Below are positions 2,778 to 28,225 of a stretch of DNA of 64,000 nt, piece after piece. Source of the stretch: Candidatus Humicultor tengchongensis (lineage in GTDB: Bacteria; Sysuimicrobiota; Sysuimicrobiia; Sysuimicrobiales; Humicultoraceae). The notes beneath the pieces were generated by a model. The model was given only the letters and a program-made list of their open reading frames with translations, was not told where the DNA came from and ran no database searches. Every line of letters starts with the position of its first letter. Within the stretch, counting starts at the first letter, position 1. Position numbers and translations under genes: made by a program. Location: contig JAVKIA010000004.1 of NCBI GenBank assembly GCA_031459715.1, positions 2,755 to 66,754 on the forward strand, written 5' to 3'.

Positions 2778-4420
2778 GGCGAGGCGCACGGAAGGGGCTG
2801 CGCCGTCCGCAGCACAAGCAGCTCGCCCCTCGATGCCATCGGTACCAGCTCCCCGGCAAAGGCCCGCCGCGCCCAGCGGTCGTAGTCGCCGCGCTCGAGT
2901 ACCAGGAAGGCGCGTCCCGGGCCGCACAGTGCCCGCCGGGCTTCCGCCTCGCGAGGCGCGACCCACCGGACCGGGTGCCCGCTGTAGAAGACCAGGGAGG
3001 CCCGATCGCTCAGGCCGGCAGCGACGATGCGGTCACCCGGCTGGATCCGGGCCCCCAGTACCAGGGCCAGCGGCTTCATCGGCTTGAGGGTCTCCGCCGC
3101 AGGGAGGACGACGAAGACCAGGACCCCCAGGGTGACCGCCATGGTGGTAACCAGGGCGGCCAGAGCAGGCGCGTGCCTCCGCCAGGCCATCAACCCCGCT
3201 GCCACCGCCACGCCCCCGACCACCGGGAGGGCCAGCAGGCGGAGCTGCAGCCGCAAGGAGGCGTAATGCGCCGGTGATTGCCGCGCGCCCAGCACTGCCA
3301 CAGCCACGACCAGAAACCCGGCAACGGACAGCAGCACCGCGCCGCTCCAGCGCAGGAGGCCATCGGCCCGGGGGTCGCCCTCCCACAGCGCAGCAGCACA
3401 CAGGCGGGCGACGGCGACGGCGGCCACCGGCAGGAGAGGGAGGATGTAGTTAGGCAGCTTCGTACCCGCGGCGGAGTAGAACAGGAGCACAGTCCCCATC
3501 CACAGCAGCAGGAGGAGGCTGCTGTCCTTCTGGCGGGCCCTCCGCCAGTGGTAGACGCAGGCTGAGGGCAGCAGCGCGCTCCAGGGAAAGGCGCCGGCGG
3601 CCAGCACGGGCAGGTAGTAGTACCAAGGCCCGGGCTGGTTCTCCACGACGCCGAAGAAGCGGGTGAACAGGTAATAGCCCACCGCCGTGCGCAGGAACGC
3701 CCGGCCGTGGAGGGCGGTCTCGATGCCGTACCAGGAGAGGCCGATCAGGCCGTAGAGGAGCAGGCCCTCCCAGGGAAGCTCCCGCAGGCGCTCCCGAAGC
3801 CTTCCCCGCACCAGCCACCAGATCCCCAGCGCCATCCCCGGCAGCAGCAGGGCGATCGGACCTTTGGTCAGCGTCCCCAGGCCAGCCCAGACGAACAACC
3901 AGCGGTAGGCGCTCCTCCGATCCGGCCCGCTCCTGGCCTGCTCCGCCGCCACCGCCATCGAGAGTGCCAGAAGCATGAAGACCACAAGCGGGACGTCGAA
4001 GACGGCCATGCGGGACAGCAGGAAGTACTCCAGCATGGTCATCAGGATCAGCCCGGCCAGCAGCCCCGTGCGCAGGTCATAAAACCGGCGGGCAAGCAGC
4101 ACGGTAACGAGCACGCCGGAGGCCCCAAAGAGCGCCGACCAGATCCGCGCGGTGAACTCCGTGAAACCAAACAGAGCACCGGTGGCGGCAACCAGCCACA
4201 TATACAGAGGCGGGTGGACGAACCAGGGTGCGCCGTTGCTGTACAGGGTGAAGGGATCTCCCCGCTGGACGATGGCGCGGGCCACCTCGGTGTATTTCGC
4301 CTCGTCCTGGTCCCACAGGCTCCCCTGCCCCAGGGCAACAGTGAAGAAGGCCAGGGCGGCCGCCGCCAGCAGCAGGGGAGCAGCCCGCTCCGGCAGCCGG
4401 ACGGTCAGCGCACCCGCCAC
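2774..4420 (-). CDS. ArnT/PMT-family (GT39/GT83) polytopic membrane glycosyltransferase using a polyprenol-phosphate-sugar donor
   Basis: The C-terminal ~550 aa of the 780-aa track ORF show multiple TM helices and PMT_2/ArnT-like motifs (…DEAKYTEVARAIVQRGD…, YYYLPVLAAGAFPWS, KLPNYILPL). The N-terminal Pro/Arg/Gly-rich 230 aa is an artefactual extension. My proposed start is the GTG at 4420 (VAGALTVRLPERAAPLLLAAA…), 16 nt inside the LptFG 3' end; the start is uncertain. Confidence 0.7.
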   Translation of the reverse strand: MAGALTVRLPERAAPLLLAAAALAFFTVALGQGSLWDQDEAKYTEVARAIVQRGDPFTLYSNGAPWFVHPPLYMWLVAATGALFGFTEFTARIWSALFGASGVLVTVLLARRFYDLRTGLLAGLILMTMLEYFLLSRMAVFDVPLVVFMLLALSMAVAAEQARSGPDRRSAYRWLFVWAGLGTLTKGPIALLLPGMALGIWWLVRGRLRERLRELPWEGLLLYGLIGLSWYGIETALHGRAFLRTAVGYYLFTRFFGVVENQPGPWYYYLPVLAAGAFPWSALLPSACVYHWRRARQKDSSLLLLLWMGTVLLFYSAAGTKLPNYILPLLPVAAVAVARLCAAALWEGDPRADGLLRWSGAVLLSVAGFLVVAVAVLGARQSPAHYASLRLQLRLLALPVVGGVAVAAGLMAWRRHAPALAALVTTMAVTLGVLVFVVLPAAETLKPMKPLALVLGARIQPGDRIVAAGLSDRASLVFYSGHPVRWVAPREAEARRALCGPGRAFLVLERGDYDRWARRAFAGELVPMASRGELLVLRTAQPLPCASP

Positions 4421-5475
4421 AGGAGGGCACCCCCCAGCGAGGCCAGCAATAGGTTGGGCGTCCACGCGGCCAGCAGGGGCGGCAGGCGACCGGTCTGGCC
4501 CAGGGCAAGTGTGGCGTTGGTCAGCAGGTAGTAAATCAGGATGATCAGCACGGTCAGGCCCAGGCCGATGGAGGGCCCGCCGCGGTGCGGACGCAGCCCC
4601 AGGGGGATGGCCAGGAGGGCAAAGGGCAGGCTGCTGCTGGGCAGCGCCATCCGGGCGTGCATCCACACCAGGTACTCGACGACGACCTCCCCCGTACGCC
4701 GCAGGACGGCGATATAGGCGCGCAGCTCCCGGATGGTCATCTGCGAGGGGTCTTTGTGCTGGGCCAGGATCTCCCGCGGCGTGCGCCGGATCTGGGCCTC
4801 CAGGCGGTGGAAGCTCATCTCCACCGGTGGGCTCGCCGAAAGCAGGTGGACGGTCCCCTCCTCGAACTCCCACCGGCCGCCGCTGTAGCGGGCCCGCCTG
4901 GCCTCGATGACCCGGACCAGGCGCTCCGCCTCGAACTGGTTGACCACCAGCCCTTCCAGGACCTCGCCGCCCCCGGCCATGCGGCGGGCGTAGTAGACGG
5001 AGACGCGGGAGCCTTCCACCTCGCGGAAGAGGACGTAGCCGCGTGGAGACGGGGGCTGCCTGGTGGCGCGGCTTATCTCCTGGGCGAAGCGATCCTCCGC
5101 CAGGGGTACCGTCCACTCGCCAAGCACCGCTCCCCCTACCGCCACCAGCGCCGCCACCACCAGGACCGGCAGGCTCATCCTTCCCAGGCTGATCCCTCCT
5201 GTGCGCATGGCCACCACCTCGTTGTGCTCTGAGAGGCGGCCCGCGGTCATCAGCACCGCCAGCAGCAGGGCCATGGGCAGGGAGGCCACGGCCAGGTTGG
5301 GCAGCCGCAGCAGGAGCAGCCGCAGGACGGTGGGGAGGGCGATGTGCTGGCTGACGGCGATCCGCACCAGCCCGAAGATGTCGTTCACCGCCAGCAGGAC
5401 GGTGAACAGGCCCACCCCAAAGAGGAAGAGGCCCAGCACCTGCTTCAGGATGTACCGATCCAGGATGGAGATCAC
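4405..5475 (-). CDS. lptF: LPS export ABC permease, LptF/LptG (YjgP/YjgQ) family
   Basis: 356 aa beginning MISILDRYILKQVLGLFLFGVGLFTVL…, with a periplasmic beta-jellyroll insert followed by C-terminal TM helices, typical of LptF/G. 4-nt overlap with upstream lptB. Confidence 0.8.
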   Translation of the reverse strand: MISILDRYILKQVLGLFLFGVGLFTVLLAVNDIFGLVRIAVSQHIALPTVLRLLLLRLPNLAVASLPMALLLAVLMTAGRLSEHNEVVAMRTGGISLGRMSLPVLVVAALVAVGGAVLGEWTVPLAEDRFAQEISRATRQPPSPRGYVLFREVEGSRVSVYYARRMAGGGEVLEGLVVNQFEAERLVRVIEARRARYSGGRWEFEEGTVHLLSASPPVEMSFHRLEAQIRRTPREILAQHKDPSQMTIRELRAYIAVLRRTGEVVVEYLVWMHARMALPSSSLPFALLAIPLGLRPHRGGPSIGLGLTVLIILIYYLLTNATLALGQTGRLPPLLAAWTPNLLLASLGGALLWRVR

Positions 5476-6188
5476 AGCTGGAAGGTCTCTCCCAGGTAGA
5501 AGCGCCGTGCCTCCTCGCTCTCCATGATCTCCCGCGCTGTACCCGCCAGGAGGACGGAGCCCTGGTGGATGATCATGGAGCGGTCGGTGATGGCCAGGGT
5601 CTCCCGCACGTTGTGGTCGGTGACCACCACACCCAGGCCGCGGGCCCGCAGACCGCGCACCACCTCCTGGAGCTCCGACACGGACTTGGGGTCGATTCCG
5701 GTAAACGGCTCGTCCAGCAGGATGTAGGACGGCTCCATGGCCATGACCCGGGCGATCTCCACGCGCCGCCGCTCCCCTCCGGAAAGGGAGACTCCCACCT
5801 GGCGGCGCAGGTGGGTGAGGCCGAACTCCACCAGCAGCCGCTCCACCGTCTCCCGCCGCGCGGCGCGCGGCCGCCCGGCGGCCTCCAGGACGATGAGGAT
5901 GTTCTCCTCCACGGTGAGCCCGCGGAAGATCGAGGGCTCCTGGGCCAGGTAGCCGATGCCCAGGCGCGCCCGCCTGTGCACGGGCAGGTGAGTCAGCTCC
6001 AGACCGTCCAGCCAGACCTCCCCGGCATTGGGCCGTACCAGGCCTACCATCATGTAAAAGGTCGTGGTCTTCCCGGCGCCGTTGGGCCCCAGCAGGCCGA
6101 TGATCTCACCCCGCTCCACCTCCAGCGTCACGCCGTTGACCACGGTGCGCGCCCCGTACCGTTTGACCAGGTTGCGTGTCCGCAGCAC
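5472..6188 (-). CDS. lptB: LPS export ABC transporter ATP-binding protein LptB
   Basis: 238 aa with Walker A GPNGAGKTT, signature LSGGERRRVEIARV, Walker B ILLDEPF and an LptB-like C-terminus. Confidence 0.85.
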   Translation of the reverse strand: MLRTRNLVKRYGARTVVNGVTLEVERGEIIGLLGPNGAGKTTTFYMMVGLVRPNAGEVWLDGLELTHLPVHRRARLGIGYLAQEPSIFRGLTVEENILIVLEAAGRPRAARRETVERLLVEFGLTHLRRQVGVSLSGGERRRVEIARVMAMEPSYILLDEPFTGIDPKSVSELQEVVRGLRARGLGVVVTDHNVRETLAITDRSMIIHQGSVLLAGTAREIMESEEARRFYLGETFQL

Positions 6189-6207
6189 GGCCGACCACTC
6201 CCCGGGG

Positions 6208-7149
6208 TTACTGCCCCGGCCCGCCCAGAGTCAGACGGGGACCGCCGGTTGCGGTCACCCGCCGCGCCCGCAGCTCCACTCTCACCACCTCGGCGGTCAG
6301 GGTATGGGAGCCGCGGCGCACCACCACCCCGCCGCTCAGGGTGACCACTCCGGCACGCCCGTCCGCTACCGCCAGCGGCGCGCGCGCCAGCAGCTCCCCG
6401 GCGGTGAGGCGGACGTCGTCCACAGCCGTCGCCCGCTCCTCCGCAAGGCGGGCCTCTACCCTACCCGCCTGCAGGCGCCCCTCCGGAAGGGTGAGGTCCG
6501 CGTCCCCGGCGGCGGTCCCCACCTCCGCCGCCGCGTCAAACTCCAGCCGCCGCCCTGCCAGCCGCATTTGCCCGAAGGTGAGGAGGGGACTGCCCTCGGC
6601 CATCACCCGCCTCCTGGCCAGGTCCACCTCGATCCGCCCCGCCGTCAGACGCACCAGGTCGGCGCCGCGCTGCGCGGTCACCTCCACGCCCTCCTCAGCC
6701 ACGACAAGGTTGCTCCGCAGCCAGGCTGCGGTACGGGACGCCCGCAGGACCAGCGTCTCCTGCCGCAGGACCACGCCGCCGGACGCTTCCACCAAACCCC
6801 GCCGCTCATCGTAGCGAACCTCCGGGGCCTCCAGCCTGGCCGGGCCCCAGGCCACTACCACCGGGAAGCCTCGCAGGAGCCAGGTGCCGGCAGCACGGTC
6901 GTACTCGGCGTACGAGGCGCCGGTGACCTCTACGGGCGGTCCTCCCTGGGCCGCGGCGGGCTGGCCTGCGGCAAACGGCGCCCTCGCCGCAGCAGAGGGG
7001 CTGGCGGCACAGGTCAGGGTGGCCGCGAGCACCAGGGTGGCGGCCAGGGCCAGGGTGCCAGTGAGGGTCAGGGCCGCACCCGGGAGTGGAGCAGCGGCCA
7101 CAGCGGTGCGCGACGAGACTGCGGGGGCGGGGAAAGGGCGACCGCGCAC
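6208..7149 (-). CDS. LptA/OstA-like periplasmic LPS-transport protein (start uncertain)
   Basis: The C-terminal ~250 aa of the 435-aa track ORF has a signal-like segment (AVAAAPLPGAALTLTGTLALAATLVLAATLTCAAS) followed by an OstA-fold-like beta-rich region (…LRGFPVVVAWGPARLEAPEVRYDERRGLVEASGGVVL…, …VRLTAGELLARAP…). A candidate GTG start at 7149 abuts the LptC-like stop. Confidence 0.55.
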   Translation of the reverse strand: MRGRPFPAPAVSSRTAVAAAPLPGAALTLTGTLALAATLVLAATLTCAASPSAAARAPFAAGQPAAAQGGPPVEVTGASYAEYDRAAGTWLLRGFPVVVAWGPARLEAPEVRYDERRGLVEASGGVVLRQETLVLRASRTAAWLRSNLVVAEEGVEVTAQRGADLVRLTAGRIEVDLARRRVMAEGSPLLTFGQMRLAGRRLEFDAAAEVGTAAGDADLTLPEGRLQAGRVEARLAEERATAVDDVRLTAGELLARAPLAVADGRAGVVTLSGGVVVRRGSHTLTAEVVRVELRARRVTATGGPRLTLGGPGQ

Positions 7150-7151
7150 AG

Positions 7152-7766
7152 CTACTCCCGCACAGTCACGCGGATGTTCCCGCTCAGCCTGGCCCTGCGT
7201 AGCTCGATGTCGCTCTCCAGGCGGTCGGCGCGGACGGTAATCCGGTCCTGCACCAGCACCACGCCGCCGGTCGCCACTAGGAGGCGGCGAGCGGGCAACC
7301 ACTGCACGCGCCCCGCCGCCAGAGACCGTCCCTGGGCACGGGCGCGTACCTCGCCCCACAGCGTCAGTACCTGCGCCCCAATAGAGAAGACGGCGCTGGC
7401 CGCGGCAACCGTCAGCACCGCCCTGCCCCGCTCGTAAAATGTTCCGTCCACGCCCTCCAGCCGCACCTCCTGTCGGGCGGCATCCGTCTCCAGAGTCCTG
7501 GCCCGCAGCTCCCACCGGATAGTGCCCGCCGCATCACCTCCGGTGAGGCGGCCGCCCACAACGGAGACCTCCGGCGGGGCAGTTTCAGAGGTGGGCGCGG
7601 GCGCACCGCGTACCGAGCCAGGCGCAGGCGTGGAAACAGGCGCAGGTGGGGAGGCGCCGGACGACGGGCCGGGATCGCCGGCGGACCCTCCGCGGCCCAG
7701 CCAGGTCAGGCCGGCCAGCCCCAGCACGGCGACCACCGCTGCGGCCGTCCACCACCTCACGCGCAT
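7152..7766 (-). CDS. LptC-like membrane-anchored OstA-fold protein
   Basis: The ATG at 7766 gives MRVRWWTAAAVVAVLGLAGLTWLG (a TM anchor), a Pro/Ser-rich linker, then a beta-rich domain ending …DRITVRADRLESDIELRRARLSGNIRVTVRE, which is LptC/LptA-like. It sits between lpxB and lptA/lptB. Confidence 0.55.
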   Translation of the reverse strand: MRVRWWTAAAVVAVLGLAGLTWLGRGGSAGDPGPSSGASPPAPVSTPAPGSVRGAPAPTSETAPPEVSVVGGRLTGGDAAGTIRWELRARTLETDAARQEVRLEGVDGTFYERGRAVLTVAAASAVFSIGAQVLTLWGEVRARAQGRSLAAGRVQWLPARRLLVATGGVVLVQDRITVRADRLESDIELRRARLSGNIRVTVRE

Positions 7767-9929: not shown

Positions 9930-10829
9930 TCACCGCGCCTCCCCCGGCCGTGGCCCCAGCGGCGAGGCCTCTACGGCGAACACGCTGATCCCCGCCTCCT
10001 CCGCACGGGCGGCCAGCCGCAGCCGCTCCAGGACGATGGTGCGGAAGGCCTCCACCGCCAGCACCCGTGCCCGTCCCGCCCGCATCACCTCCACGGTTTC
10101 CGGACCCACGGTGGGAAGATCGAAGCGGGGGTCTTGCTGCGGCCGGCTCACCTTCACCACTACTGCGCCCGGTGCCATGGCCGTGCCCCGCCGGATGGCG
10201 GCATCGGTCCCCTCCGCCGCCTCCACGGCCAGGATCGCCCCGTGCTTGAGAACCACGGTCTGGCCCACTTCGTGGGCCGCCAGTGCACGGCCCACGGCCA
10301 GGCCGATGCGCACGTCGCGCTCTTCCGCAGGGCTAAGTGGGGTGCCGGCCAGCAGCCCGGGCGGGGCCACAAGGTCGGGGACGTAGGCGAGCTGGTCCAG
10401 GACGCGGATCCCCTGCGCGGCCAGGCGGCGGGCCAGGGCGTCCAGGATCTGCTGGTCACCCCGTTCCGGCAGTCGCTCCAGGAACCCGCGCAGGTCGGAC
10501 CCGGAGGCGAGCAGCCGCGCCACCATCTCTCCGCGGCGAAACCGCCCGGCCAGCAGTACCTCGCGCACTGCATGCCGGTGCCACAGGGCCTCCAGCTCCT
10601 CCCACTGCTCCGGGGCCAGCCTGGCGAAGACGTGGGCCAGGTGCTCCAGAGCCGGAGTCTCCCCCGCCATCTGCACGCAGACGAGGCGGCGGCCCCGCGC
10701 CCGCACCGCCCTGGCCAGCACCTCTGGCAGGCGCCCCTCGCCCGCCAGCAGTCCCACGGCACCGCGCAGTGCCTCCCCACCGCCTGGGGCGGCCCTGGGG
10801 AATCGTCTCTGGGGCCGGGCCGCGGTCAC
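9930..10829 (-). CDS. lpxI: UDP-2,3-diacylglucosamine hydrolase LpxI (DUF1009)
   Basis: DUF1009/LpxI-like core ([27 protein letters not shown]…[25 protein letters not shown]). The start GTG at 10829 overlaps the fabZ stop in a GTGA overlap that I checked in the DNA. The 397-aa track ORF is an N-terminally over-extended artefact. Confidence 0.7.
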
Positions 10830-11332
10830 CTCTCGCCGACCAGCGGCTCCGCGGAGGGTGCGGGCGCCACCTGTTCCTCCGGCAGGAGGGCAGTCGCCGT
10901 CTCTTCCCGGGGAAGGGCAAACGCGATCTCCGCTTCTGCCGCCACCTCCTCCCCCACCCGGGCCACTCCCCAGACCTTTCCCAGCCGCCCGCGCAGGGCC
11001 CGCACCTCCACCTCGATGCGCAGGGTGTCGCCGGGTACCACCGGGCGGCGGAAACGACAGCGGTCGATCCCGGCCAGGTAGGCCAGGTGCCCGCGCAGGC
11101 GGGGGACGTTGAGGATCAGGCACGCCGCCACCTGGGCCATCGCCTCCACCACCAGCACCCCCGGCATAACCGGATAGCCCGGGATGTGACCGGCGAAGAA
11201 GGGTTCGTTGACGGTCACGTTCTTGATGCCGACGATGCGCCGCTCCTCCATCTCCACGATCCGGTCCACGAGGAGAAAGGGGTAGCGGTGGGGCAGGATG
11301 GCAAGGATCTGCTCAAGGCTCAGTGCGGGCAT
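10826..11332 (-). CDS. fabZ: 3-hydroxyacyl-ACP dehydratase FabZ
   Basis: From the ATG at 11332: [60 protein letters not shown]…, the canonical FabZ hot-dog fold. 20-nt overlap with the lpxC 3' end. Confidence 0.9.
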
Positions 11333-12149
11333 TTCTCTCCCCCCAGCGGCGCGCAATCTCCCGGGCCAGGGCCACGTGCAAGGCGTGGCCTCCGCGGACG
11401 ACCTCCACGTATCCATGCAGGCGAGCACCCAGCAGGGCCAGGTCCCCCAGCAGGTCGAGGATCTTGTGCCGGACCGGCTCGTCGGCGAACCGGGGCGGGT
11501 TCAGGTAGCCGCCCGCGGCAATGACCAGGACGTTCCCCGGCCCGGCCCCCCGAGCCAGTCCCGCGGCGCGCAGCGTCGCGGCTTCGTCAACAAATCCCCA
11601 GGTCCGCGCCGGAGCAATCGCGGTGGCGAACACCGAGAGGTCGGCGGTGGCCACCTGACGGCCCAGGGGCGGCGGCAGGTCCACGATGTAGCGGACGCGG
11701 AGCTCGCCGCCCGCCCGGGTGACGGCGCGGGCATCCCCGACCGTCACCTCCACCTCGCCGAGTTCGATCACCCGGGCAGGCTCTTCCTGCTCCACGATGC
11801 CGGCCCCGGCCAGCGCCTCCACGTACCCGGCCGCGCTGCCGTCGAGGGCAGGCAGCTCCGGCCCTTCCACCTCCACCTGCAGGTTGTCGATGCAAAGACC
11901 CGCCGCCGCCGCCAGCAGGTGCTCCACGGAGGCCACGGTCACGCCGTCTCCCAGGGTGACCCCGCGGCGCGTGCTGCGCACGTTCTCCAGTGTCGCCCGA
12001 AGGGCGCCAGGGCCGAGGTCGCAGCGGGAGAAGATGACACCCGCACCGGGAGGCGCGCCCAGAAGGCGCACGCGTACCGCCGCGCCGCTGTGTACCCCCA
12101 CGCCACTTAGGGAGACGGCTCTAGTGATGGTGCGCTGGCGGATGGGCAT
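11313..12149 (-). CDS. lpxC: UDP-3-O-acyl-N-acetylglucosamine deacetylase LpxC
   Basis: From the ATG at 12149: [29 protein letters not shown]…, with LpxC motifs (…[18 protein letters not shown]…, …[14 protein letters not shown]…). Confidence 0.85.
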
Positions 12150-12165
12150 CCTCCCCCGGGCGATG

Positions 12166-13968
12166 CTACTCCTTCGGTCGCAGCAGGAGGCGCACAGGGT
12201 AATAGGAGCCGGCCGCGGGCATGGTAACGACGCCGACCTGCACGCTCTGCCCAGCCGGCACGGTGAGGGTACCAAGGACGCGCTCCTCGCCCGGCCGGTA
12301 GATGGCGATCTCCACCGGGCGGCCATCCACCAGGAAGGTTCCGCGCGCCGGACCGCCGGCGGCGACGGCCACCAGCTCCGCCTGCACCTCGGTCGGCCCG
12401 CCGGCCACTGTGAGCAGCAGGCGGTAGACGACGCCGTAGTCTCCCACCAGCGGCTCGGCCGTGCGCACGTCCTGCAGTCCGGCCGCCGCCCCCAGGTCCA
12501 CCAGGGGCACCGGCCCGCCCAGCTCCACCCGTCGATGGACGGTCACCGTGGGCAAGGGGAAGACGCCCCGGGGATGGGGGTAGGCCACCTGGTACACGGG
12601 CAGGGGGACCGTGCCCTCCAGCAGCCAGGGGAGGCGGACTTGCACCCGGACCTCGAGCTCCTCTCCCCGCAGCAACTGGAGCTGCAGGATACCCGAGACC
12701 AGCTGCCGGGGAGCCATCGTCTGGACGGTGAAGGCATAGGCGGAGTTTGGCGGAACCTCCAGCACGTAGCCCCGGCCGGCAGCCAGGTTCCGCAGGAAGC
12801 GCGCCGCGGCGGCATGCCCCACAAACAGAGAATCGGGGGAGGGACCGGCCAGGCCACTGATCAGCAGCATCTCTGAGGGCTGCGTGCTGCGGTTCCACAG
12901 CATAACGGAGAGGATGCGAGGGCACGCCGGGGTCCCGTTCATGTGGTGGTAGAGCAGGCGGATCGGGTGGCGCGCGTCTACCGCTTCGGAGAAGAGGATC
13001 CCGTCGGCGTCCACGACCTCGGGTCGGTTGCTCACTAACAGCAGTGCCGGATCCGCCACCTGCACCCGTTCCCGCAGCACAACCACGCGCGCCACCCCGT
13101 CCACCGGCAGCGCATATGGGCTGCGTACCACCACCGGGACGGCCAGCTCCACCCGGTCGGCGTCCGCGGCCATCCCCTCCAGGGACGGGAAGGGACCCAC
13201 GGCCAGCGTGGCCCCGGGCCCCCGGCGCACCACCTGGTCGATGCGCCGCCGTACCGCCTCCCTGATCAGTGCCGCATCCGTCAGGTCGCCGCTGACCCGT
13301 ACCGTAACCTCCTCGGGGATGGTTCCGGCAAGCGGTCGCACCACCACCGGCAGCAAGACCCGCCCTCCTCCCACGGCCACCGGCACCACCGTGGAGCCCA
13401 CCGCACGGGCCTCCACCACCACAGTGCCTCCTTCCACCCGCACAGAAGCGATGCGCCGGTCGAAAGGCCCAAGCCTCACCGCTCCCGGGAGGAAGGCCTG
13501 GACGGAGACGCTTGCCCTCTCTCCGGGCGAAAGCCGCAGCAGCGGCGGAAACAGACGGACGGTGTTGCGGGCCAGGGCCTGCTGCAGCCGCGCCGCCCAC
13601 TGCGCGGCCAGCGCCTCCGGGGTGGTCCGGTTGAGCCGCGCCAGCTCTCCGTCGGCAGTGACCAGGTGCCGCTCGTTCACCAGCAGGTCCGCGGCTCCGG
13701 GACGGGGGCGCACGGCGACGGTGTATGGGCCCCCCGCCGCTACCAGCGCGCCGAGTCGGCGCACCACTTCCGCCGCCCGCAGCGCCGCCCCCGGCCCGCG
13801 CACCCGTAGCACCACCACCTCCTGCAGGACGACCGCCACCGCAGGCTCCGCACCGGTCTGCGGGAGCAGACGCACCGGAGCCTCCGCCCTCCCCCCGGCG
13901 GCGAGGAGGGTGAGGCTCACCGTGCAGGCCAGGAGGGTCGTCAGAGGCAGCCGCAGGGACAGCATCAC
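12166..13968 (-). CDS. Hypothetical secreted protein (600 aa) inserted between lpxD and lpxC
   Basis: N-terminal signal peptide ([30 protein letters not shown]), then a long beta-rich, Val/Arg/Pro-rich sequence with no motif I recognise. Its coordinate spans overlap lpxD by 4 nt upstream and leave 16 nt before lpxC downstream, so it appears to sit in the lpx operon. Confidence 0.6.
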
Positions 13969-15005
13969 CGCTTCGAGCGGGAGCGCGCGCGCCGGGTCGC
14001 CAGCTCAGCCAGGCGCCGTTGCAGCGCCTCAAATCCGGCGAAAAGCTCGGGCAGCCGCCGCAGGTATGCCTGCACCCGCAGCTCCTGCCGGTGCGGCCAG
14101 GCCGGGAAGCCGGAGACGACCTGCCGCGCGGGGATGTTCTTGGTCACCCCGGCCTGAGCCAGCACCGTGGCTCCGGCGCCGATGCGGGTGTGGTCCCGCA
14201 CTCCCACCTGCCCGGCCAGGACAGCGCCGTCCTCCACGGTCACGCTGCCGGCCAGGCCCACCTGGCCGGCGATCAGCACCCCGCGGCCGATGCGCACGTT
14301 GTGGGCCACCTGCACCAGGTTGTCGATCTTGGTGCGCGCCCCGATGCGCGTCTCCCCCAGGGTGCCCCGGTCCACCGCGGTGTTGGCTCCGATCTCCACG
14401 TCGTCCTCAATGACCACCCGGCCCAGGTGAGGGATCTTCACCGGCCCGCTCTCGCCCTGCGCATAGCCAAACCCGTCGCTACCCACCACCACCCCCGGGT
14501 GAAGGATGACGCGGTGGCCGAGGACGCAGCCGGCGCGCACGGTCACCTGGGGACCGAGGATACAGTCCTCCCCCACACGCGCGTCGCTCTCCACCACGGT
14601 TCCGGCCAGCAGCGCGCTGCGCGCCCCCACGCGCGCCCGATCGCCAAGCACCACGTGCGGCCCCACGTGCACGCCGTCCCCCAGGACGACATCGGTCCCC
14701 AGCACCGCGGTGGGATGGACTCCCGGAGGATAGGCAGGCGCGGGGGAGAAGAGGGCCAGCAGGCGGGCAAAGGCCAGGCGGGCGTTAGCCGCGCGGATCG
14801 CCGGCTTTCGCCCGGGAGGCAGCTCCGCAGGGAGGAGGACGGCGGCAGCGGCGCTGGCCTCGGCCGCGCGCAGGGCGTCGGCATCAGCGGCGTAGACGAT
14901 GGTCCCCGGGCTCGCCGCCTCGGGCTCCCCCACCCCGCTGATCTCCACGGCGGGGTCGCCGGCCAGAGTACCGCCCAGGTGAGTGGCCAGGTCGCCCAGT
15001 CTCAT
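13965..15005 (-). CDS. lpxD: UDP-3-O-acylglucosamine N-acyltransferase LpxD
   Basis: 346 aa with an N-terminal LpxD domain ([25 protein letters not shown]…) followed by extensive hexapeptide repeats. Confidence 0.85.
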
Positions 15006-15011
15006 CGCCGG

Positions 15012-15449
15012 TCACCGCAGTCTGGCGATCACCTCTTCGGTGATGTCGACGGTACGGCCGGGGAGAGCGTACACCACGGGGCTCTTCACCAGCACGGCGC
15101 CCCGCAGCCCTCGCTCCCGAACTATCTGGCCCACCACGTCGCGGATCTCCTTGTTCAGCCGGTCCTCCAGCTCCCCCTTCAGCTGCGCCAGCTCCCGCAG
15201 GTACTGGTTGCGCCGCGCCTCCAGATCCGCGGGGGAGAGCTGCCCTGCTAGCAGCTGCAGATCCAGGGCCATGGCCTTCTCTCGCTCGTCCAGCTGTCGC
15301 TGGTAGGAGAGCGCCCGAACGCTCTCGTTGAGGATGCGGTTTGTGTCTACGAGGGCGAGCCTGCCCCCGCCGCAGGCAGCCAGCCCCACGGCGGCCGAAA
15401 GCAGGAGCACCATGGCCGTGACCATCGAGGTGCGGCGCCGCGCAGGCAC
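15012..15449 (-). CDS. OmpH/Skp-family periplasmic chaperone, possible lipoprotein
   Basis: 145 aa with a signal peptide and an LAAC lipobox-like motif, then an OmpH-like coiled coil (…NESVRALSYQRQLDEREKAMALDLQLLAGQL…). Confidence 0.65.
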   Translation of the reverse strand: MPARRRTSMVTAMVLLLSAAVGLAACGGGRLALVDTNRILNESVRALSYQRQLDEREKAMALDLQLLAGQLSPADLEARRNQYLRELAQLKGELEDRLNKEIRDVVGQIVRERGLRGAVLVKSPVVYALPGRTVDITEEVIARLR

Positions 15450-15453
15450 GGTC

Positions 15454-16563
15454 CTACCGCTTCAGCCGGGCGAGCACCTCGGTGGTGAGGTCCTCGCCCG
15501 TCAGGTTGCTCAGGTAGCGGGTCAGCACTACATCGAAGCCCCGGGCGGCAGCCAGGGCGGCCACCTCGATCTTCACGTCGGAGAGGATCACGTCCTCCAG
15601 GCGGGAGCGCTGCTCGGTGAGCGCCTGCCGCTCTGCCAGGAGCTGCTGCTCCCGCTCCCGCAGCCCCTCCGCATACCGGTTCTGGGCGGCGGCCAGCTGG
15701 CCTTCGGCCAGGCTGAGCAGGCGGCGACGGAAGGCCTCCAGCTGCGCCTCGAAGGCCCGCTGCCTGGCCGTCATCAGGCGTCGTGTCCCGGCCTCCAGCT
15801 CCTGCCTCTTTGCCTCCACCATCCGGGCGAACTCTCGCTCCGCCTCCCGCTGCGCCCTGGCCAGCCGGCCGTTGGCCTCGGCCACGCGGGCCTTCTCGAA
15901 GTCGCGCAGGATCACCTCCACCAGCTCAGCCCTGGCGCGGACCTTGGCATCCCGCTCTGTGAGCAGCCGGTCCAGCTCTTCCGTGAGCTGGCGCAGCTCC
16001 TCCTCCGAGGCCACGCCGATGACGGCCGCCTTCAGCCGCAGGTTGGCGATGGGGAAGCGGTACTCGTCCAGGACCTCGGCCTCATAGCGGCGCAGCTCGG
16101 CACGCAGCTCCGCCGCCCGGGCCTCCACCGCCTGTTTCAACTCCGCGTGTATCTGCGCGCGCAGCCGCTCCAGCTTCGCCGTCTGCTCCTCTCGCAGGGA
16201 AGCGGCGTAGCGCTCCAGGGCGGCCTCCTGCCGCTGCCGCAGGGAAGCCATCTCCGCCTGGAACTCCGCCTCCAGGCGCTTGGCCTGGGTGCGCAGCTGC
16301 GCCTCCAGGCGGTCCTGCAAAAGCGGCGGAGCCTGCGGCGGGACGGCGAGCTGCGCCTCCAGGTCGGCCAGCTTTGTATTCAGGGCGTCCAGCTCCGGCC
16401 AGCGTGGATGCGCCCGTGCCACCCGGTCCACGTCCACGACGCCCACACGCAGCCCCCCCCTGCCTGTGGGCGTCGGCTGCGGCCGGACCGCCGCGCCCTG
16501 AGGCCGACAGCCAGCCGCCCCCAGGAACGCCAGGAGCAGGAACACGGAGAGGCGCCGGAGCAT
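15454..16563 (-). CDS. Long OmpH/Skp-like coiled-coil periplasmic protein (369 aa)
   Basis: Signal peptide MLRRLSVFLLLAFLGAAGC, an OmpH-type N-terminus (VGVVDVDRVARAHPRWPELDALNTKLADLEAQ…) and about 250 aa of Arg/Glu/Ala/Leu-rich coiled coil, with a second OmpH-like C-terminal segment (…VKIEVAALAAARGFDVVLTRY…). Confidence 0.6.
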   Translation of the reverse strand: MLRRLSVFLLLAFLGAAGCRPQGAAVRPQPTPTGRGGLRVGVVDVDRVARAHPRWPELDALNTKLADLEAQLAVPPQAPPLLQDRLEAQLRTQAKRLEAEFQAEMASLRQRQEAALERYAASLREEQTAKLERLRAQIHAELKQAVEARAAELRAELRRYEAEVLDEYRFPIANLRLKAAVIGVASEEELRQLTEELDRLLTERDAKVRARAELVEVILRDFEKARVAEANGRLARAQREAEREFARMVEAKRQELEAGTRRLMTARQRAFEAQLEAFRRRLLSLAEGQLAAAQNRYAEGLREREQQLLAERQALTEQRSRLEDVILSDVKIEVAALAAARGFDVVLTRYLSNLTGEDLTTEVLARLKR

Positions 16564-16567
16564 GCGG

Positions 16568-17047
16568 CTACTTGCCCGCCACCTTCTGGATCACCTGATC
16601 GGTGAGATCCACCCCGCCGAAGAGCACCACCGAGCGCTCCAGGACAATGGCCACCCCCTGCGCCCTGGCTACCTCCTCGATCGCCGCGCGGATCTCCCGG
16701 TCCAGGCCACCGAACAGCTCCTGGCGCTTGGCCAGCACCTGCTGCTGCAGCTGCCGGTCCAGCAGCTGCCGCTGCTCCGCCGTCATCCCCTTGGATCGCT
16801 CCCGGAACTCCCGCTGCTTGGCCGCAAAGAACTCCTGCAGGGCGCGCTCGGAGGCCGCCCGCCGCGGGTGCGCGTCCAGCGCCCGCTGCATGTCCACGAT
16901 GCCGATGGCGAAGCTCTGGCCGAAGGCGGGCACTCCACCTCGGGACAGCGTCCACACCACGGCCGCGACCAGCAGCAGCACTCCCCCGCCGAGGGCGAAC
17001 CACCAGCTCCGCCGCAGCGTCCGTACGCCATCCAGCCGCGTCCTCAC
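16568..17047 (-). CDS. OmpH/Skp-family periplasmic chaperone
   Basis: 159 aa with an N-terminal TM/signal segment, then IGIVDMQRALDAHPRRAASERALQEF…KRQELFGGLDREIRAAIEEVARAQGVAIVLERS, an OmpH signature. Confidence 0.7.
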   Translation of the reverse strand: MRTRLDGVRTLRRSWWFALGGGVLLLVAAVVWTLSRGGVPAFGQSFAIGIVDMQRALDAHPRRAASERALQEFFAAKQREFRERSKGMTAEQRQLLDRQLQQQVLAKRQELFGGLDREIRAAIEEVARAQGVAIVLERSVVLFGGVDLTDQVIQKVAGK

Positions 17048-17128: not shown

Positions 17129-18430
17129 CTACAGGTTGCTGATCAGGCGCACCCAGTACTCGCCCCCCGACCTGCCGACAATCTCGCCGGAGAGGAATTC
17201 GGTGAAGCGGTATCGCACGCTCCCCTCCACCTGCTGGGCCGGCAGCAGGTATGCCAGGCGCACGCTCACATCCGGCCCCACCCGGTAGGTGACGAACCCG
17301 GTGACCTCCCCGGTGTTCAGCGTATAGGCCGCCCCCAGGTCCCAGACCGCATCCGGCGCGTAGCGCAGCCCCAGGTCGTAGCGGGCGGAGAGGGTGTTGG
17401 GCAGCAGCCCCACCTCGGCGAACGTCTCCAGGCGGCCGAAGAGACGGCCGAGGTGGGCCCGCAGTTCCGGACCCGGGGCCCGCGTGCCCACGTTGAGCTG
17501 CGCCTCGACCCGCCCCAGCCAGAGGAGCGAATCGGCCACCACGGTCACATACGTCGTCTCCCCCACGGAGAGGACGGGCCGGGCCACGACGCGGTACTCG
17601 GCCGCAGGTGGATATGCCCGCAATCGCTCTGCCAAAAGCCGCTCCAGCGTTTCGCGCTGCCCCTGGACGAAGGCGACGGGCAGTCCGCGGATGGGCCCGG
17701 CCATGGACAGGACCGCCGGGGCGTGCTGCTCCAGCAGGAGGAACGGGATGGAGCTGGAGCGGAAGCGCACGCCGATGTCCCGCACCACGCGGCCATCGCG
17801 GGGCAGGAGGTCCACATCCACTCGGGCCACCCTCCCCGCCCGCACCCGCGCCGCTCCGCTGAACCCGGGCAACGCCTCCTCTACGGCGCGGCGGACCTCC
17901 TGGGCGACAAGCGGCCCGGCCCAGTCCAGGGACTGCACCGGCAGGCCCACGAGCATTGCCCGCACAGCCGACGCCACCGCCTGCTGCACCGGCTGCAGGA
18001 CCAGGGGGGCCACGGCGGAATCCACGTCGCTGTGCGGGAGGACCTCGACCTCGTGGACCAGCGGCGGTGCGGGGCGCAGGCGCACCGCCACCACGGCGGT
18101 GGGCCCCACCTCCACGCGGGCCTCGGCGACGGTGTAGCCGCCCACCACCCGGTCCACCACTGTGGTCAGCGTGGCCCGCAGCTGCGTCAGGCCCGGACGG
18201 AGCTGGTCCACCGGGCGGCCGACCAGCAACCGCTGCGCCACCGTCTCCACGGTGCTCTGCAGGCGGGCCTGAACCACGGGGGGGACGCCGCCGTCCACGG
18301 CCAGGTGCACTTCCACCGCCTCGACCACCGCGCCGCTGGCTGCGGCCCACGGGACCAGCAGCAGGAGCAGGGCCAGGCTGCAGACCGCTCGCCCGGCCGC
18401 GGCTAGAACGGGTGTCCCAGGTTGAGCCAC
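17129..18430 (-). CDS. Hypothetical secreted/envelope protein immediately downstream of bamA (start uncertain)
   Basis: This is the frame of the 473-aa track ORF 17129..18550, which gives a coherent protein (signal-like AAAGRAVCSLALLLLLVPWAAASG, then Val/Arg/Ala-rich repeats). The overlapping 527-aa ORF 17088..18671 in another frame is compositional junk. A candidate GTG start at 18430 lies 28 nt inside the bamA 3' end. No family assignment. Confidence 0.45.
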   Translation of the reverse strand: MAQPGTPVLAAAGRAVCSLALLLLLVPWAAASGAVVEAVEVHLAVDGGVPPVVQARLQSTVETVAQRLLVGRPVDQLRPGLTQLRATLTTVVDRVVGGYTVAEARVEVGPTAVVAVRLRPAPPLVHEVEVLPHSDVDSAVAPLVLQPVQQAVASAVRAMLVGLPVQSLDWAGPLVAQEVRRAVEEALPGFSGAARVRAGRVARVDVDLLPRDGRVVRDIGVRFRSSSIPFLLLEQHAPAVLSMAGPIRGLPVAFVQGQRETLERLLAERLRAYPPAAEYRVVARPVLSVGETTYVTVVADSLLWLGRVEAQLNVGTRAPGPELRAHLGRLFGRLETFAEVGLLPNTLSARYDLGLRYAPDAVWDLGAAYTLNTGEVTGFVTYRVGPDVSVRLAYLLPAQQVEGSVRYRFTEFLSGEIVGRSGGEYWVRLISNL

Positions 18431-20346: not shown

Positions 20347-21051
20347 CTACCGGCGCTCCCCGCGAAGCGACCGCTCCGCTGCAATGACCAGATCGATGAG
20401 CTCGGCATCGGAGACCAGGGTGGGAGGCGCCGAGGTCAGGGTGGCCGCAGCGGCGGTCCGGGGTGTCGGCGCCGGCCTGGCAGCAGGCCGCATGGAGGGA
20501 CGCCCAACCCGCTTCACCTGCAGGGGCGACGCGACCCGCGCCTGCGGCACCACGCGCGGAATAGGGGCCGCGACGGCCGGCGGGGCAGCCGTCTCCTCCG
20601 GGGTAAGCACCGCCGGCACCAGCGCCAGCATGATGCCCGGCTGCCTGAACCTGACCACAGCGGGCGGGGGAGCCAGCCCGGGAGCCACCTCTACCCGGGT
20701 AGCCAGCAGCGACCGGCCGCCCAGGAGCAGGGCCAGCAGGGCAGCGGCGCCCAGCACCGTCATCACCGCCGGGGAGCGAGGAAGCACCTCCTCCCGTGCA
20801 GGGAAGGTGCGCTCGCGGGCGTGGTGCACCTCCGCTTCGGCCAGCAGCAAGGTGAGGATGCCGCGGGCGAGCCGCCCGTCCGTCACCTCCTGCCTGGCCC
20901 GGGCCAGCCACCGTTCGGCGAAGCCGATGTGGCGCACCAGGTGCTCCTGCGCAGCGTCTCGCTCACTGGCCTGTGATTGCACAGCGCCTCCCTCCTCAAC
21001 GGTAGCAGGCAGGCGAACCTTCCGATAGTTACTATCCGCAGGCGGCGCCAC
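20347..21051 (-). CDS. Putative membrane-anchored anti-sigma factor / hypothetical protein downstream of the sigma factor
   Basis: 234 aa with a cytoplasmic N-terminus, a single TM (VMTVLGAAALLALLLGG) and a Pro/Ala-rich extracytoplasmic tail. It lies 35 nt downstream of the sigma gene in the same orientation. The anti-sigma function is inferred from context only. Confidence 0.4.
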   Translation of the reverse strand: MAPPADSNYRKVRLPATVEEGGAVQSQASERDAAQEHLVRHIGFAERWLARARQEVTDGRLARGILTLLLAEAEVHHARERTFPAREEVLPRSPAVMTVLGAAALLALLLGGRSLLATRVEVAPGLAPPPAVVRFRQPGIMLALVPAVLTPEETAAPPAVAAPIPRVVPQARVASPLQVKRVGRPSMRPAARPAPTPRTAAAATLTSAPPTLVSDAELIDLVIAAERSLRGERR

Positions 21052-21085
21052 TCAATCGCATATCGGCTGCAGCACTCCCGCGCGG

Positions 21086-21715
21086 TCAGGAGGTCTCCGG
21101 CCGCGGCGCCGAGGGGTTCAGCGCAGCCCTGACCCGGGCGATAGCCTGCTTCTGCAGCCGGTAGAAGTGGGAGAGGCTGATACGCAGCGCACCGGCCACC
21201 TGTCGTGGGTCCTGGCGGGTGAGGAACGCCCGCAGGATGGCCCGCTCCCGCCCCGGGAGGTCGGCCACGACCGCCCGGATCTGCTCGTAGAGGACCCGAT
21301 CCTCCACCCGCAGCAGGGAGAGCTCCGCCTCCAGGTCGCCCAGCGCACCCCCCGGCACCAGTTCCTCCGCCAGGAGCTGGTCCAGGGAAAGCTCGCCGGT
21401 GCGGCGGGCGAAGGCGTTGAGCATGCGGCCGCGAATGCGGTAGGCAGCGAAGGTGCTGAAGCGGACCCCGCGGCCCGGGTCGAAGCGCTCCACCGCCTCG
21501 ATCAGGCCCACTGTCCCCTCCTGAATCGTGTCCATCAGGAGCGCCTGCGGCGGACGCAGCTGCATGGCCAGCTTGAAAACCAGCGGCTGGTAAGCCTCGA
21601 TCAGGCGGAGGCGACTGGCCGCATCGCCGCTGCGGTACTGCGCCCACAGCCCTGCCTCCTCATCGGGGCGGAGCAGGTTGACCTTTTGGAGCTCACGCAG
21701 ATACTCCTCAAACAT
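21086..21715 (-). CDS. Sigma-70-family RNA polymerase sigma factor (group-3 / sporulation- or FliA-like size)
   Basis: 209 aa with region 2 (LIEAYQPLVFKLA…DTIQEGTVGLIEAVERFDPGRGVRFSTFAAYRIRGRMLNAF) and a region 4 HTH (RQVAGALRISLSHFYRLQKQAIARVR). Confidence 0.75.
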   Translation of the reverse strand: MFEEYLRELQKVNLLRPDEEAGLWAQYRSGDAASRLRLIEAYQPLVFKLAMQLRPPQALLMDTIQEGTVGLIEAVERFDPGRGVRFSTFAAYRIRGRMLNAFARRTGELSLDQLLAEELVPGGALGDLEAELSLLRVEDRVLYEQIRAVVADLPGRERAILRAFLTRQDPRQVAGALRISLSHFYRLQKQAIARVRAALNPSAPRPETS

Positions 21716-26392: not shown

Positions 26393-28225
26393 TCAGCGCA
26401 CATGAATGGGGACCCGGAACTCCCCCTGGATCACCCAGTTGGTCCGGATCAACCGGCCGGCGAAGACGTCGAACTTAGTGAACTCCGCTCCGGTCGCCGG
26501 CAGGCCGAAGGGGACCAGGCGGATCAGGATCTGGTTGTTGGTCCCCAGGCTCTCAAAGATCTCCACCGCCTCCTCCAGGGTGTCCCCGGGGAAGGGGGGC
26601 TGCTCGGTGAGCAGGTCTCGTACGATCACGTCTTCCGGGCTGGTTCCAGTCAGGTCGATCCCCGCCGAGCTGACGAGGAGCACCGCCGGGCCCCGCGGGT
26701 AATTCCGCGGCACAGGGACCTCGATGACCCGAGAGACCTGCTGGTCCTGCTGGTAGGGGCGGACGGTGATCCGGACGCGGATGGTCCCTCCCGGGTCGAC
26801 CTCCCGTGTCTCCGCCTCAACGTTGGTGATCTCCGCTGTCTCCCGCTTGCGGGAGAGGGTCATCTCCACCTTCAGGTCAAACGGGTCCAGGTCGGCGAAG
26901 GGATTGAAGAAGAGGAACTGGACTGCCGTGGAGATGTCCAGTACTGAGGCCAGGGCCACGTCCTGCTGGCTGTAGAAGATATTCTCCCGGGAGATGACTC
27001 CGGGCAGCCGCCTGGCGCGCACCGCCATCTTTACCCGGGCCGACCCCTCCCCCTGGACCTGGTCGCGTCCCCGCTCTGCGGCGACGAAGGCCACCAGGGG
27101 CGCGAAGAGGCGCACCAGATCGGCGCGGCGCACCACCTGGGCCGCCCGGCTCACCGTCTTTCCTGAGTCGGCGTCGTTGACGGTGACTCGGACGGTGAAC
27201 ATGCGGGGGAACTTCCCCACCAGGCCGCGGATGCCTGGCCCGCGGTCCTCGTCGATCTGCCCGACCAGCGGTCCCAGGTTGCCCTCCAGGAAGGGACGCT
27301 GCAGCGTCTGCACCACGGTGACGATCTCGGCGGTGGTCAGGCCGTAGGCCACCGACCCCAGGTTCTCCCAGGGGTGACCGCAGATGAGCAGCTTGCTCCC
27401 CACCCGCAGCGTCGTGGTGCAGATGCCGCCGAACTCCACGTCGCCCAGCACCTGGAGGATCCCCACCGGCGAGCCGGCGCGGATCTGCGCCGCCTCCCCG
27501 GCGGCCTGCCCTCCGCCATACTGCACCAGCGGCCGCTGGGCCAGCCGCTCGCCCATCACCTTCTGCAGGAGGGTGAAGGCGCGGGGGGTCAGGCCTCCGG
27601 CCAGGGTCACCGGCTGCGCCGGGAGGAAGGCCAGGGTGCCGGGCAGTGCCGCCGCCTGGCGGGCCTGGGCGGGAGTGCGGGCCACCACCACCCGGTGGAC
27701 CGGCTTCCCGTCCACCACCAGCGGGGTGGTGGGGGAGAAGACGGTGGGCCAGGGAGCGGCTGCAGCCTGCGGCTGCTCCAGCAGCGGCAGCATGTACTCG
27801 ATGGGGGTGCCCAGCCCCAGGTCCTTCCTGGTCTGGAAGAGATAGCTGGCGCTGTGGGCGCCCACCAGCTTCCCGTTGATGTACAAGGGGCTGCCGCTCA
27901 TCCCCGCAGCGGTGCCGCCTGTCTGCTCCATCAGGGGGCCGTAGGTCCGGTAGAGAATCAGGTGCTTCACCGGGATGGCGCCGCCACCTCCCGCCAGCAG
28001 CGCCATTACCTCGAAGTTGAACTCCGCGATCTGCGGGCTCTTCACCGTGGTCCGGCCCACGCCCCGCATCCCCGGCTTGATCTCCGCCACCTTCATGATC
28101 GGGGGCAGCCCCTCCTGGGCGCTGCCCACCGCCGCCGGCGGCAGGAGGACCGCCAGGGCCAACCCGCATACCATGACCGCTCGCCACACACGTGTCACGT
28201 CCCTCTCTCCTCTCTCACTCCCCAC
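26393..28225 (-). CDS. SpoIVB-like peptidase S55 family protein (610 aa), secreted
   Basis: Signal peptide, then the S55/SpoIVB-type serine motif GMSGSPLYINGKLVG, and a long C-terminal extension. It is the gene immediately upstream of tamB. Confidence 0.6.
   Translation of the reverse strand: MGSERGERDVTRVWRAVMVCGLALAVLLPPAAVGSAQEGLPPIMKVAEIKPGMRGVGRTTVKSPQIAEFNFEVMALLAGGGGAIPVKHLILYRTYGPLMEQTGGTAAGMSGSPLYINGKLVGAHSASYLFQTRKDLGLGTPIEYMLPLLEQPQAAAAPWPTVFSPTTPLVVDGKPVHRVVVARTPAQARQAAALPGTLAFLPAQPVTLAGGLTPRAFTLLQKVMGERLAQRPLVQYGGGQAAGEAAQIRAGSPVGILQVLGDVEFGGICTTTLRVGSKLLICGHPWENLGSVAYGLTTAEIVTVVQTLQRPFLEGNLGPLVGQIDEDRGPGIRGLVGKFPRMFTVRVTVNDADSGKTVSRAAQVVRRADLVRLFAPLVAFVAAERGRDQVQGEGSARVKMAVRARRLPGVISRENIFYSQQDVALASVLDISTAVQFLFFNPFADLDPFDLKVEMTLSRKRETAEITNVEAETREVDPGGTIRVRITVRPYQQDQQVSRVIEVPVPRNYPRGPAVLLVSSAGIDLTGTSPEDVIVRDLLTEQPPFPGDTLEEAVEIFESLGTNNQILIRLVPFGLPATGAEFTKFDVFAGRLIRTNWVIQGEFRVPIHVR

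Follow-up and report, generated by a model that had tools for sequence, protein, structure and literature searches.

A predicted secreted multidomain protein encoded between lpxD and lpxC in an Armatimonadota lineage: a candidate accessory factor of lipopolysaccharide biogenesis

Position and coding status of gene X

We analyzed a 64,000-nucleotide (nt) stretch of contig JAVKIA010000004.1 from Candidatus Humicultor tengchongensis (the window), in which gene X (12166–13968, minus strand) lies between the lipopolysaccharide (LPS) genes lpxD and lpxC. The gene is predicted to encode a secreted multidomain protein of 599 or 600 amino acids (aa) from a family of the Armatimonadota, and it was delimited by its open reading frame (ORF), its codon-position guanine-plus-cytosine (GC) content, its homologues, and an AlphaFold2 (AF2) model. 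The neighboring genes were identified by Pfam and by the public gene calls for the same contig. Directly upstream, lpxD (13965–15005, minus strand; Hexapep 3.9e-29 and LpxD 2.5e-12) overlaps the start of X with its stop codon, and directly downstream lies lpxC (11313–12149, minus strand; LpxC PF03331 1.6e-76), for which the public gene call gives 278 aa. An earlier reading of the window (the original prediction) had placed an ORF between these two genes, and the Pfam matches of both flanks bear this out.

The start codon of X is either GTG at 13968 or ATG at 13965; the latter is the choice of the public annotation and gives a protein of 599 aa. The stop codon is TAG (12168–12166, minus strand). 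The TGA stop codon of lpxD occupies 13967–13965 and the junction reads GTGATG, which gives an overlap with X of 4 nt (GTGA) for the GTG start or 1 nt for the ATG start. Between the stop codon of X and the ATG of lpxC (12149) there is a spacer of exactly 16 nt, CATCGCCCGGGGGAGG (12150–12165), the final 8 nt of which, GGGGGAGG (12150–12157), are Shine-Dalgarno-like. The junction sequence therefore agrees with both distances given in the original prediction, the 4-nt overlap with lpxD (with the GTG start) and the 16 nt ahead of lpxC. These junctions indicate that X is translationally coupled to lpxD. A scan for promoters and terminators from bamA to lpxB gave no signal above the shuffled expectation. 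The identical deposited protein is named "hypothetical protein QN209_08340 [Armatimonadota bacterium]" (P0001).

The GC content of the window is approximately 72%, and long ORFs are therefore common here by chance. X itself is overlapped by an ORF of 641 aa on the same strand in another frame and by ORFs of 385–461 aa on the opposite strand. X might accordingly be non-functional, either a chance frame in GC-rich DNA or a recent foreign or mobile insertion; the long overlapping ORFs in all frames and the absence of an assigned family in the curated libraries would fit this explanation. However, the codon-position GC of X (0.81/0.50/0.86) resembled that of lpxD, lpxC, bamA, and lpxA (approximately 0.80/0.53/0.88), whereas the alternative ORFs differed. 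Together with full-length homologues, of which there are hundreds and which extend down to 25% identity, and a confident AF2 model, these values indicate that the frame of X is the coding one. Furthermore, the GC content of X is the same as that of its flanks, and a composition like that of the neighbors argues against a recent insertion, as does the retention of its position in all 25 of the lpx-linked loci described below. A non-functional X can thus be regarded as refuted, and X is a genuine gene under long-term constraint.

Genomic context in related genomes

We scanned one genome per GTDB species, which gave 40 loci, and located the Lpx genes by tblastn with the Lpx proteins of the window. 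Clades were assigned from a quick neighbor-joining tree of the C-terminal 430 residues. Clade A1 comprises the window, Ca. Fervidifonticultor, Ca. Geohabitans, Ca. Nitrosymbiomonas, and CSP1-3, and clade A2 comprises the loci L032–L035. In these two clades lpxC lay directly downstream of X in 25 of 25 loci (L013–L036 and L044; X identity 28–69%), and lpxD lay directly upstream in all 19 loci whose contig extends upstream. In most of the 25 loci, the Skp-like gene and bamA were also located further upstream, and lpxA, lpxI, and lpxB on the downstream side. The order lpxD-X-lpxC was likewise found in loci reached through single proteins with 54, 46, 43, and 29% identity. The original prediction would have had to be abandoned in favor of a recent insertion if close relatives lacked X at the syntenic position; X was kept there in 25 of 25 loci.

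Two metagenome-assembled genomes (MAGs) with unexpected labels, "Bacillota" (L033, JAMDEM010000030.1) and "Chloroflexota" (L034, JAMCWD010000025.1), showed the Armatimonadota-type order (bamA-)lpxD-X-lpxC. These are either misclassified bins or unrecognised LPS-diderm lineages.

In the remaining 15 of the 40 loci, no lpx gene was present within 5 kb of X. Nine of these 15 grouped in a single clade (HRbin16, SKYG bins, a Chthonomonadia MAG, and others), and in each of the nine X adjoined one or more genes of the heptose pathway. One or two GT9 heptosyltransferase genes followed X on the same strand in six of the nine loci, with a 4-nt overlap in four of the six; the GT9 matches reached 1e-38 in Pfam and 133.7 bits for heptosyltransferase II in NCBIfam, against a cut-off of 134.6. 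A heptose-7-phosphate kinase of the rfaE domain I type preceded X in five of the nine (316.6 bits against a cut-off of 345), and an rfaE domain II adenylyltransferase was nearby in three (181.7 bits against a cut-off of 181.5). This heptose and heptosyltransferase cluster is a second, independent LPS context of the X family, that of the inner core. When membership in an LPS gene cluster is defined operationally by co-orientation, tight packing, and conserved position, X belongs to such a cluster in the 25 of 25 X-lpxC loci and in the 9 of 9 GT9/rfaE loci.

The X homologue in the locus L045 (Bacterium HR16, BEHS01000044.1, 4923–6848) was split into two ORFs, 4923–6059 and 6090–6848; the cause is either a frameshift or pseudogene formation, or else an error of assembly.

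Metagenomes were scanned for relatives of LpxC, and X was present in only one of the 80 loci obtained (L056, clade A1, with the order lpxD-X-lpxC). The original prediction regarded lpxD and lpxC as normally contiguous, and in other lineages the two genes do abut without X. These results indicate that X is a lineage-specific yet ancient and stable insertion in the lpxD-lpxC block. In the X-less locus closest to the window (L071, Ga0209515_10001065), lpxD and lpxC were separated by a gap of 263 nt (1074–1337), whereas the two genes nearly abutted in the other X-less loci; a tblastn search for X at this locus was negative.

Export and domain architecture

A putative signal peptide covers residues 1–28 (13882–13965, minus strand), with hydrophobic residues 4–24, a likely cleavage after AEA and before P, and disorder of residues 1–27 in the AF2 model. 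A hydrophobic, signal-like N-terminus was present in 173 of 184 full-length family members, and a lipobox-like motif in 20 of 184. To judge from these features, X is most likely exported by the Sec pathway as a soluble, released protein without a lipid anchor. A lipoprotein processed at LLAC was considered and rejected; the cysteine is not conserved and lies within the hydrophobic core of the signal peptide.

The AF2 model, built with 25 homologues, had a mean predicted local distance difference test (pLDDT) score of 85.9 and a predicted template modeling (pTM) score of 0.76, and it showed five domains after the disordered signal peptide. Domain 1 (residues 31–132; 13570–13875, minus strand; pLDDT 85–96) has an α/β fold of three strands, a helix, three strands, and two helices. 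Its final helix is conserved throughout the family (A109, L119, A120, and W123 in at least 89% of 142 distant members), and the domain had no sequence match in Pfam or PDB. Domain 2 (residues 136–209; 13339–13560, minus strand) is an all-β immunoglobulin (Ig)-like domain resembling Big_2 and pilus-N domains. Domain 3 (residues 219–299; 13069–13311, minus strand; pLDDT 88–97) is a second α/β domain, of a strand, a helix, and three strands.

The C-terminal half consists of two β-sandwiches. Domain 4 (residues 308–444; 12634–13044, minus strand) is the first, with an inserted helix of 17 residues, and carries the motifs SNRPE (13018–13032, minus strand) and YHHMNG (12934–12951, minus strand). Domain 5 (residues 466–597; 12175–12570, minus strand), the second β-sandwich of the AF2 model, contains GDYGVVYR (12421–12444, minus strand) and a 10-residue motif (12190–12219, minus strand), and the clade-specific HPRGVF (12559–12576, minus strand) stands at its start.

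The model contained no β-barrel and no membrane segment. The original prediction had left open whether a barrel, a jellyroll, or neither would be found; AF2 gave no barrel and no Lpt-type jellyroll, but α/β, Ig-like, and β-sandwich domains. No Lpt/OstA jellyroll and no LptE chain were present among the best structural matches, no enzyme fold was recognised, and profile searches against PDB sequences gave nothing beyond the Ig-like domain. Domain 2 belongs to the Big_2 / T2SS-T3SS_pil_N Ig-like domains (approximately 75–80 residues). Known proteins with Big_2 domains (the S-layer domains of SbsC, phage Hoc, and the C-terminal domain of lambda gpV) correspond to only approximately 75 of the 600 residues of X, and the Ig-like domain is of a generic kind that serves for spacing or adhesion and is uninformative on the conserved C-terminal part. 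In regards to the latter, the tandem β-sandwich ectodomains of other proteins (the extracellular domain of SIDT1/2, the collagen-binding domains s3a-s3b of ColG, and the C-terminal domain of the C. perfringens enterotoxin) were only 7–13% identical to X with a TM-score ≤0.27 and have none of the X family motifs, which makes the likeness one of common fold class only.

Family and conserved residues

The original prediction found no recognisable motif in X, and Pfam, NCBIfam, PHROGs, and PADLOC indeed gave no match for the X of the window; PHROGs and PADLOC thus provide no phage or defence assignment. When 1.84 billion cluster representatives were searched exhaustively with a hidden Markov model (HMM), 1,893 matched at E ≤1e-3, of which 906 and 571 remained at ≤1e-10 and ≤1e-30, respectively. 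With few exceptions, the 150 best were approximately 600 aa long and matched from end to end. A word-indexed search had returned 39 relatives, and the tiny family that this suggested was rejected as an artefact of the index, given the outcome of the HMM search. Two more word-indexed searches, run with broad alignments, brought up close relatives only or next to nothing. Where members are named, they are called "hypothetical protein" or "Ig-like domain-containing protein," and the organisms named are Armatimonadota, Fimbriimonadales, Abditibacteriota, and single MAGs labelled Bacillota and Chloroflexota. The X family is confined almost entirely to the Armatimonadota in the broad sense.

We aligned 142 distant and 50 close members to determine the conserved positions. 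N313, P315, E316, R336, H340, H341, N343, N358, S424, G508, G511, Y514, N522, P583, S587, Y589, and P590 were conserved in 86–100% of the sequences, and the domain 5 positions among them (G508, G511, Y514, P583, S587, Y589, and P590) in 92–100%. The family motifs are SNxPE, RLLYHHxN, G(N/D)YGxxY, NPT, and PxxGSxYP, and conservation within the family is highest in the two C-terminal domains. Within the loops of the tandem β-sandwich, the 192 sequences share a near-invariant polar set: N313, E316, R336, H340/H341, N343, N358, Y514, S587, and Y589. The X of the window has the five-domain architecture and all of the motifs save the asparagine of NPT; residue 522 (12400–12402, minus strand) is glycine in X and its closest relative, as opposed to the near-invariant asparagine of the family. 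Only the clade of the window has H464, D509, R515, and R592.

Among 37 diverse family members, 25 gave weak, sub-threshold matches to DUF3370 (PF11850; 16–22 bits, best E 1.7e-5), and nine matched PF13629 (pilus-N) in domain 2. DUF3370 is mainly cyanobacterial. Its matches cover profile positions of approximately 292–332, which correspond to the G(N/D)YGxxY...NPT region of the second β-sandwich. X is not a member of DUF3370; all matches fell below the gathering score of 25 bits, the X of the window had no match at E ≤1, and the profile is 422 positions long against approximately 600 residues in X. The location of the matches suggests that DUF3370 and the C-terminal module of X are probably distantly homologous. 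A literature search yielded no paper on the X family, DUF3370, or an LptD of Armatimonadota.

Possible function

The window holds a familiar outer-membrane and LPS gene cluster of the Terrabacteria type with an extra conserved exported component. We propose, at somewhat below an even chance, that X is an extracytoplasmic accessory factor dedicated to LPS, acting on or with it. X is a vertically inherited gene for a presumably Sec-exported, soluble five-domain protein and is a fixed member of the lipid A operon in this lineage. Production of the protein would keep pace with that of the lipid A enzymes. Its site of action would be the periplasm or the outer membrane, and its target or partner would be the lipid A–inner core part of LPS. 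The C-terminal tandem β-sandwich, which defines the family and carries the polar set in its loops, would be the working part. Because the polar set is invariant across clades with differing neighbors, we lean slightly toward a catalytic or metal-binding site rather than a simple binding surface.

In the kdsD-kdsC-lptC-lptA-lptB genes of E. coli, exported Lpt proteins are encoded among cytoplasmic LPS enzymes. The arrangement of X is similar in that a presumably periplasmic component is co-transcribed and translationally coupled with cytoplasmic LPS enzymes, and because X, like lptC and lptA in E. coli, combines predicted export with such coupling, we infer that it may be needed in proportion to LPS flux. 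X differs from the products of lptC and lptA in that it has no OstA/Lpt β-jellyroll, and an lptC and an lptA-like gene are present elsewhere in the cluster of the window. A wider form of the proposal, which is possible but on balance doubtful, is that X and its relatives are a phylum-specific extracytoplasmic component of LPS biogenesis, either a new class of periplasmic LPS-modifying enzyme with an active site in the loops of the tandem β-sandwich (E316, R336, H341, N358, and Y589) or a non-homologous assembly factor with the task that LptE-type lipoproteins have in Proteobacteria, and that DUF3370 may act similarly in Cyanobacteria.

Several observations weigh against a dedicated LPS role. 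The functional evidence is all guilt by association, and synteny inside a clade is inherited and not independent. Most of the family diversity lies outside LPS gene clusters, and the clade of the window accounts for only approximately 8 of the top 150 representatives. The X copies of Fimbriimonadaceae are followed by a TPR protein (four cases), a DUF885 gene precedes X in two sampled members, and others stand beside GHL10, a weak PMT_2 match, or a GDSL lipase with NPCBM. Moreover, lpxD abuts lpxC without X in 7 of the 80 metagenome loci, one of which, L071, encodes an LpxC 51% and an LpxD 54% identical to those of the window, and X is therefore not universally required.

These observations can be accommodated if X is a general envelope or glycan exoprotein, a binder or hydrolase directed at peptidoglycan, exopolysaccharide, or a pilus or secretin structure, and its operon position is a historical accident kept by tight packing. 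Such a protein would suit a family of 1,893 representatives in which LPS genes are absent beside X in most sampled clades, the neighbors listed above (with Peptidase_S13 nearby in two cases), folds of the adhesin, carbohydrate-binding module, or S-layer type, and lpxD-lpxC blocks that function elsewhere without X. However, an accidental passenger is unlikely to last through divergence to 28% identity in two deep clades, and chance is unlikely to have placed X independently, with a 4-nt overlap, in a heptose and heptosyltransferase cluster. We therefore consider this explanation a serious one but rather unlikely. A structural, S-layer-like surface protein anchored to LPS is suggested by the Ig-like domain matches, but these are confined to a single domain of 75 residues, X has no SLH or other anchoring domain, and an abundant structural protein would hardly be coupled between two low-abundance enzymes without its own promoter, which leaves this role improbable. 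Equally small is the chance that X stands in for LptD and/or LptE, as the original prediction had speculated, by taking LPS from the LptC-LptA bridge and aiding its insertion into the outer leaflet. X shares its cluster with lptC, an LptA-like gene, lptB, and a single lptF/G, no lptD is present anywhere in the 64 kb window, and X is predicted to be exported and is genetically coupled to lipid A synthesis; LptE-type partners are also poorly conserved outside Proteobacteria (PMC5491611). On the other hand, lptD also lies outside the outer-membrane cluster in diderm Firmicutes (PMC5491611, PMC13018214), and X has neither a barrel nor an Lpt fold nor a conserved lipobox, and its size is wrong.

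The features that define the Lpt proteins are consistent with this low estimate. X lacks the C-terminal transmembrane β-barrel of LptD (LptD/OstA_C, PF04453) and the OstA-type β-jellyroll with a hydrophobic groove of LptD, LptA, and LptC (PF03968 / PF06835). LptE is a lipoprotein of approximately 170–200 aa with a lipobox cysteine and the PF04390 fold, whereas X has 599 aa and no Pfam match. LptE, LptM, and LptY do resemble X in being extracytoplasmic, non-barrel proteins tied to LPS assembly, as X is tied to LPS genes and presumably exported. However, they are small outer-membrane lipoproteins, and X, with 600 aa and no conserved lipobox, shows no sequence similarity or detected fold similarity to them and, unlike them, has paralogues in non-LPS contexts. 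Of the envelope role assigned to X in the original prediction, the general association with LPS has thus been strengthened by the 25 of 25 lpx loci and the heptose clade, and the LptD/LptE stand-in is unsupported.

How LPS outer membranes are built and maintained outside Proteobacteria is poorly known. Terrabacteria lineages lack several accessory components, namely LptE, BamB-E, and Lol, or have them in unrecognisable form (PMC5007114, PMC5491611, PMC13018214). Because X is wedged between lpxD and lpxC down to 28% identity and has relatives in a heptose/inner-core cluster, it offers a concrete candidate for a step of LPS maturation or assembly that is particular to this lineage. The dedicated accessory factor would also be a first functional lead on a family of nearly 1,900 sequence clusters and perhaps also on DUF3370, where the current labels are "hypothetical" or "Ig-like domain-containing." If the link proves to be positional only, the consequence is one of annotation, namely that the X family should not receive an LptD- or LptE-like label.

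A link between X and ArnT-like PMT_2 glycosyltransferases, one of which follows X in the locus L010 and another of which belongs to the cluster of the window, was considered and dropped; the two PMT_2 proteins have no detectable similarity.

Other genes of the cluster

The gene order on the minus strand of the window is TamB, an ECF sigma factor, an unassigned gene, BamA, a 433-aa gene, three Skp/OmpH-like genes, LpxD, X, LpxC, FabZ, LpxI, LpxA, LpxB, LptC, an LptA-like gene, LptB, a single LptF/G, a PMT_2 glycosyltransferase, and a GT2 glycosyltransferase. The ORF of fabZ (10826–11330, minus strand; FabA-domain match 2.6e-30) overlaps the end of lpxC by approximately 18 nt; at the corresponding fabZ position of the loci L007 and L008 (12636–13139), the public calls for identical contigs list no gene. 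The Lpt set (4405–7766, minus strand) consists of lptC, an LptA-like gene of unusual length (313 aa, with weak LptA/LptD_N matches), lptB, and one lptF/G. A single LptF/G has also been reported in diderm Firmicutes.

Upstream of lpxD, three tandem Skp/OmpH-like genes (15012–17047, minus strand) encode proteins of 159 aa, 369 aa (unusually long and rich in coiled coils), and 145 aa, and related loci have kept this trio. Ahead of the trio lies the 433-aa ORF (17129–18430, minus strand; 473 aa from the first start codon), which begins approximately 28 nt before the end of bamA and has no Pfam or NCBIfam match. Counterparts follow bamA in L001 (437 aa) and L005 (413 aa), whereas L004 has none there. 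This ORF could encode a lineage-specific BAM partner comparable to SonA/SonB, the genes of which adjoin bamA in diderm Firmicutes (PMC13018214).

The genes of the ECF-type sigma factor (209 aa) and of an adjoining 211-aa protein, possibly its anti-sigma factor, lie between tamB and bamA (20347–21715, minus strand), and the pair is kept in L001, L004, and L005. A 610-aa protein with a weak match to the SpoIVB-type Peptidase_S55 (1.2e-7) is encoded beside tamB (26393–28225, minus strand), and it is followed by the envelope-sugar genes for a UDP-GlcNAc 2-epimerase, a GT4 transferase of the WecA/MraY type, and a GlmU-like protein.

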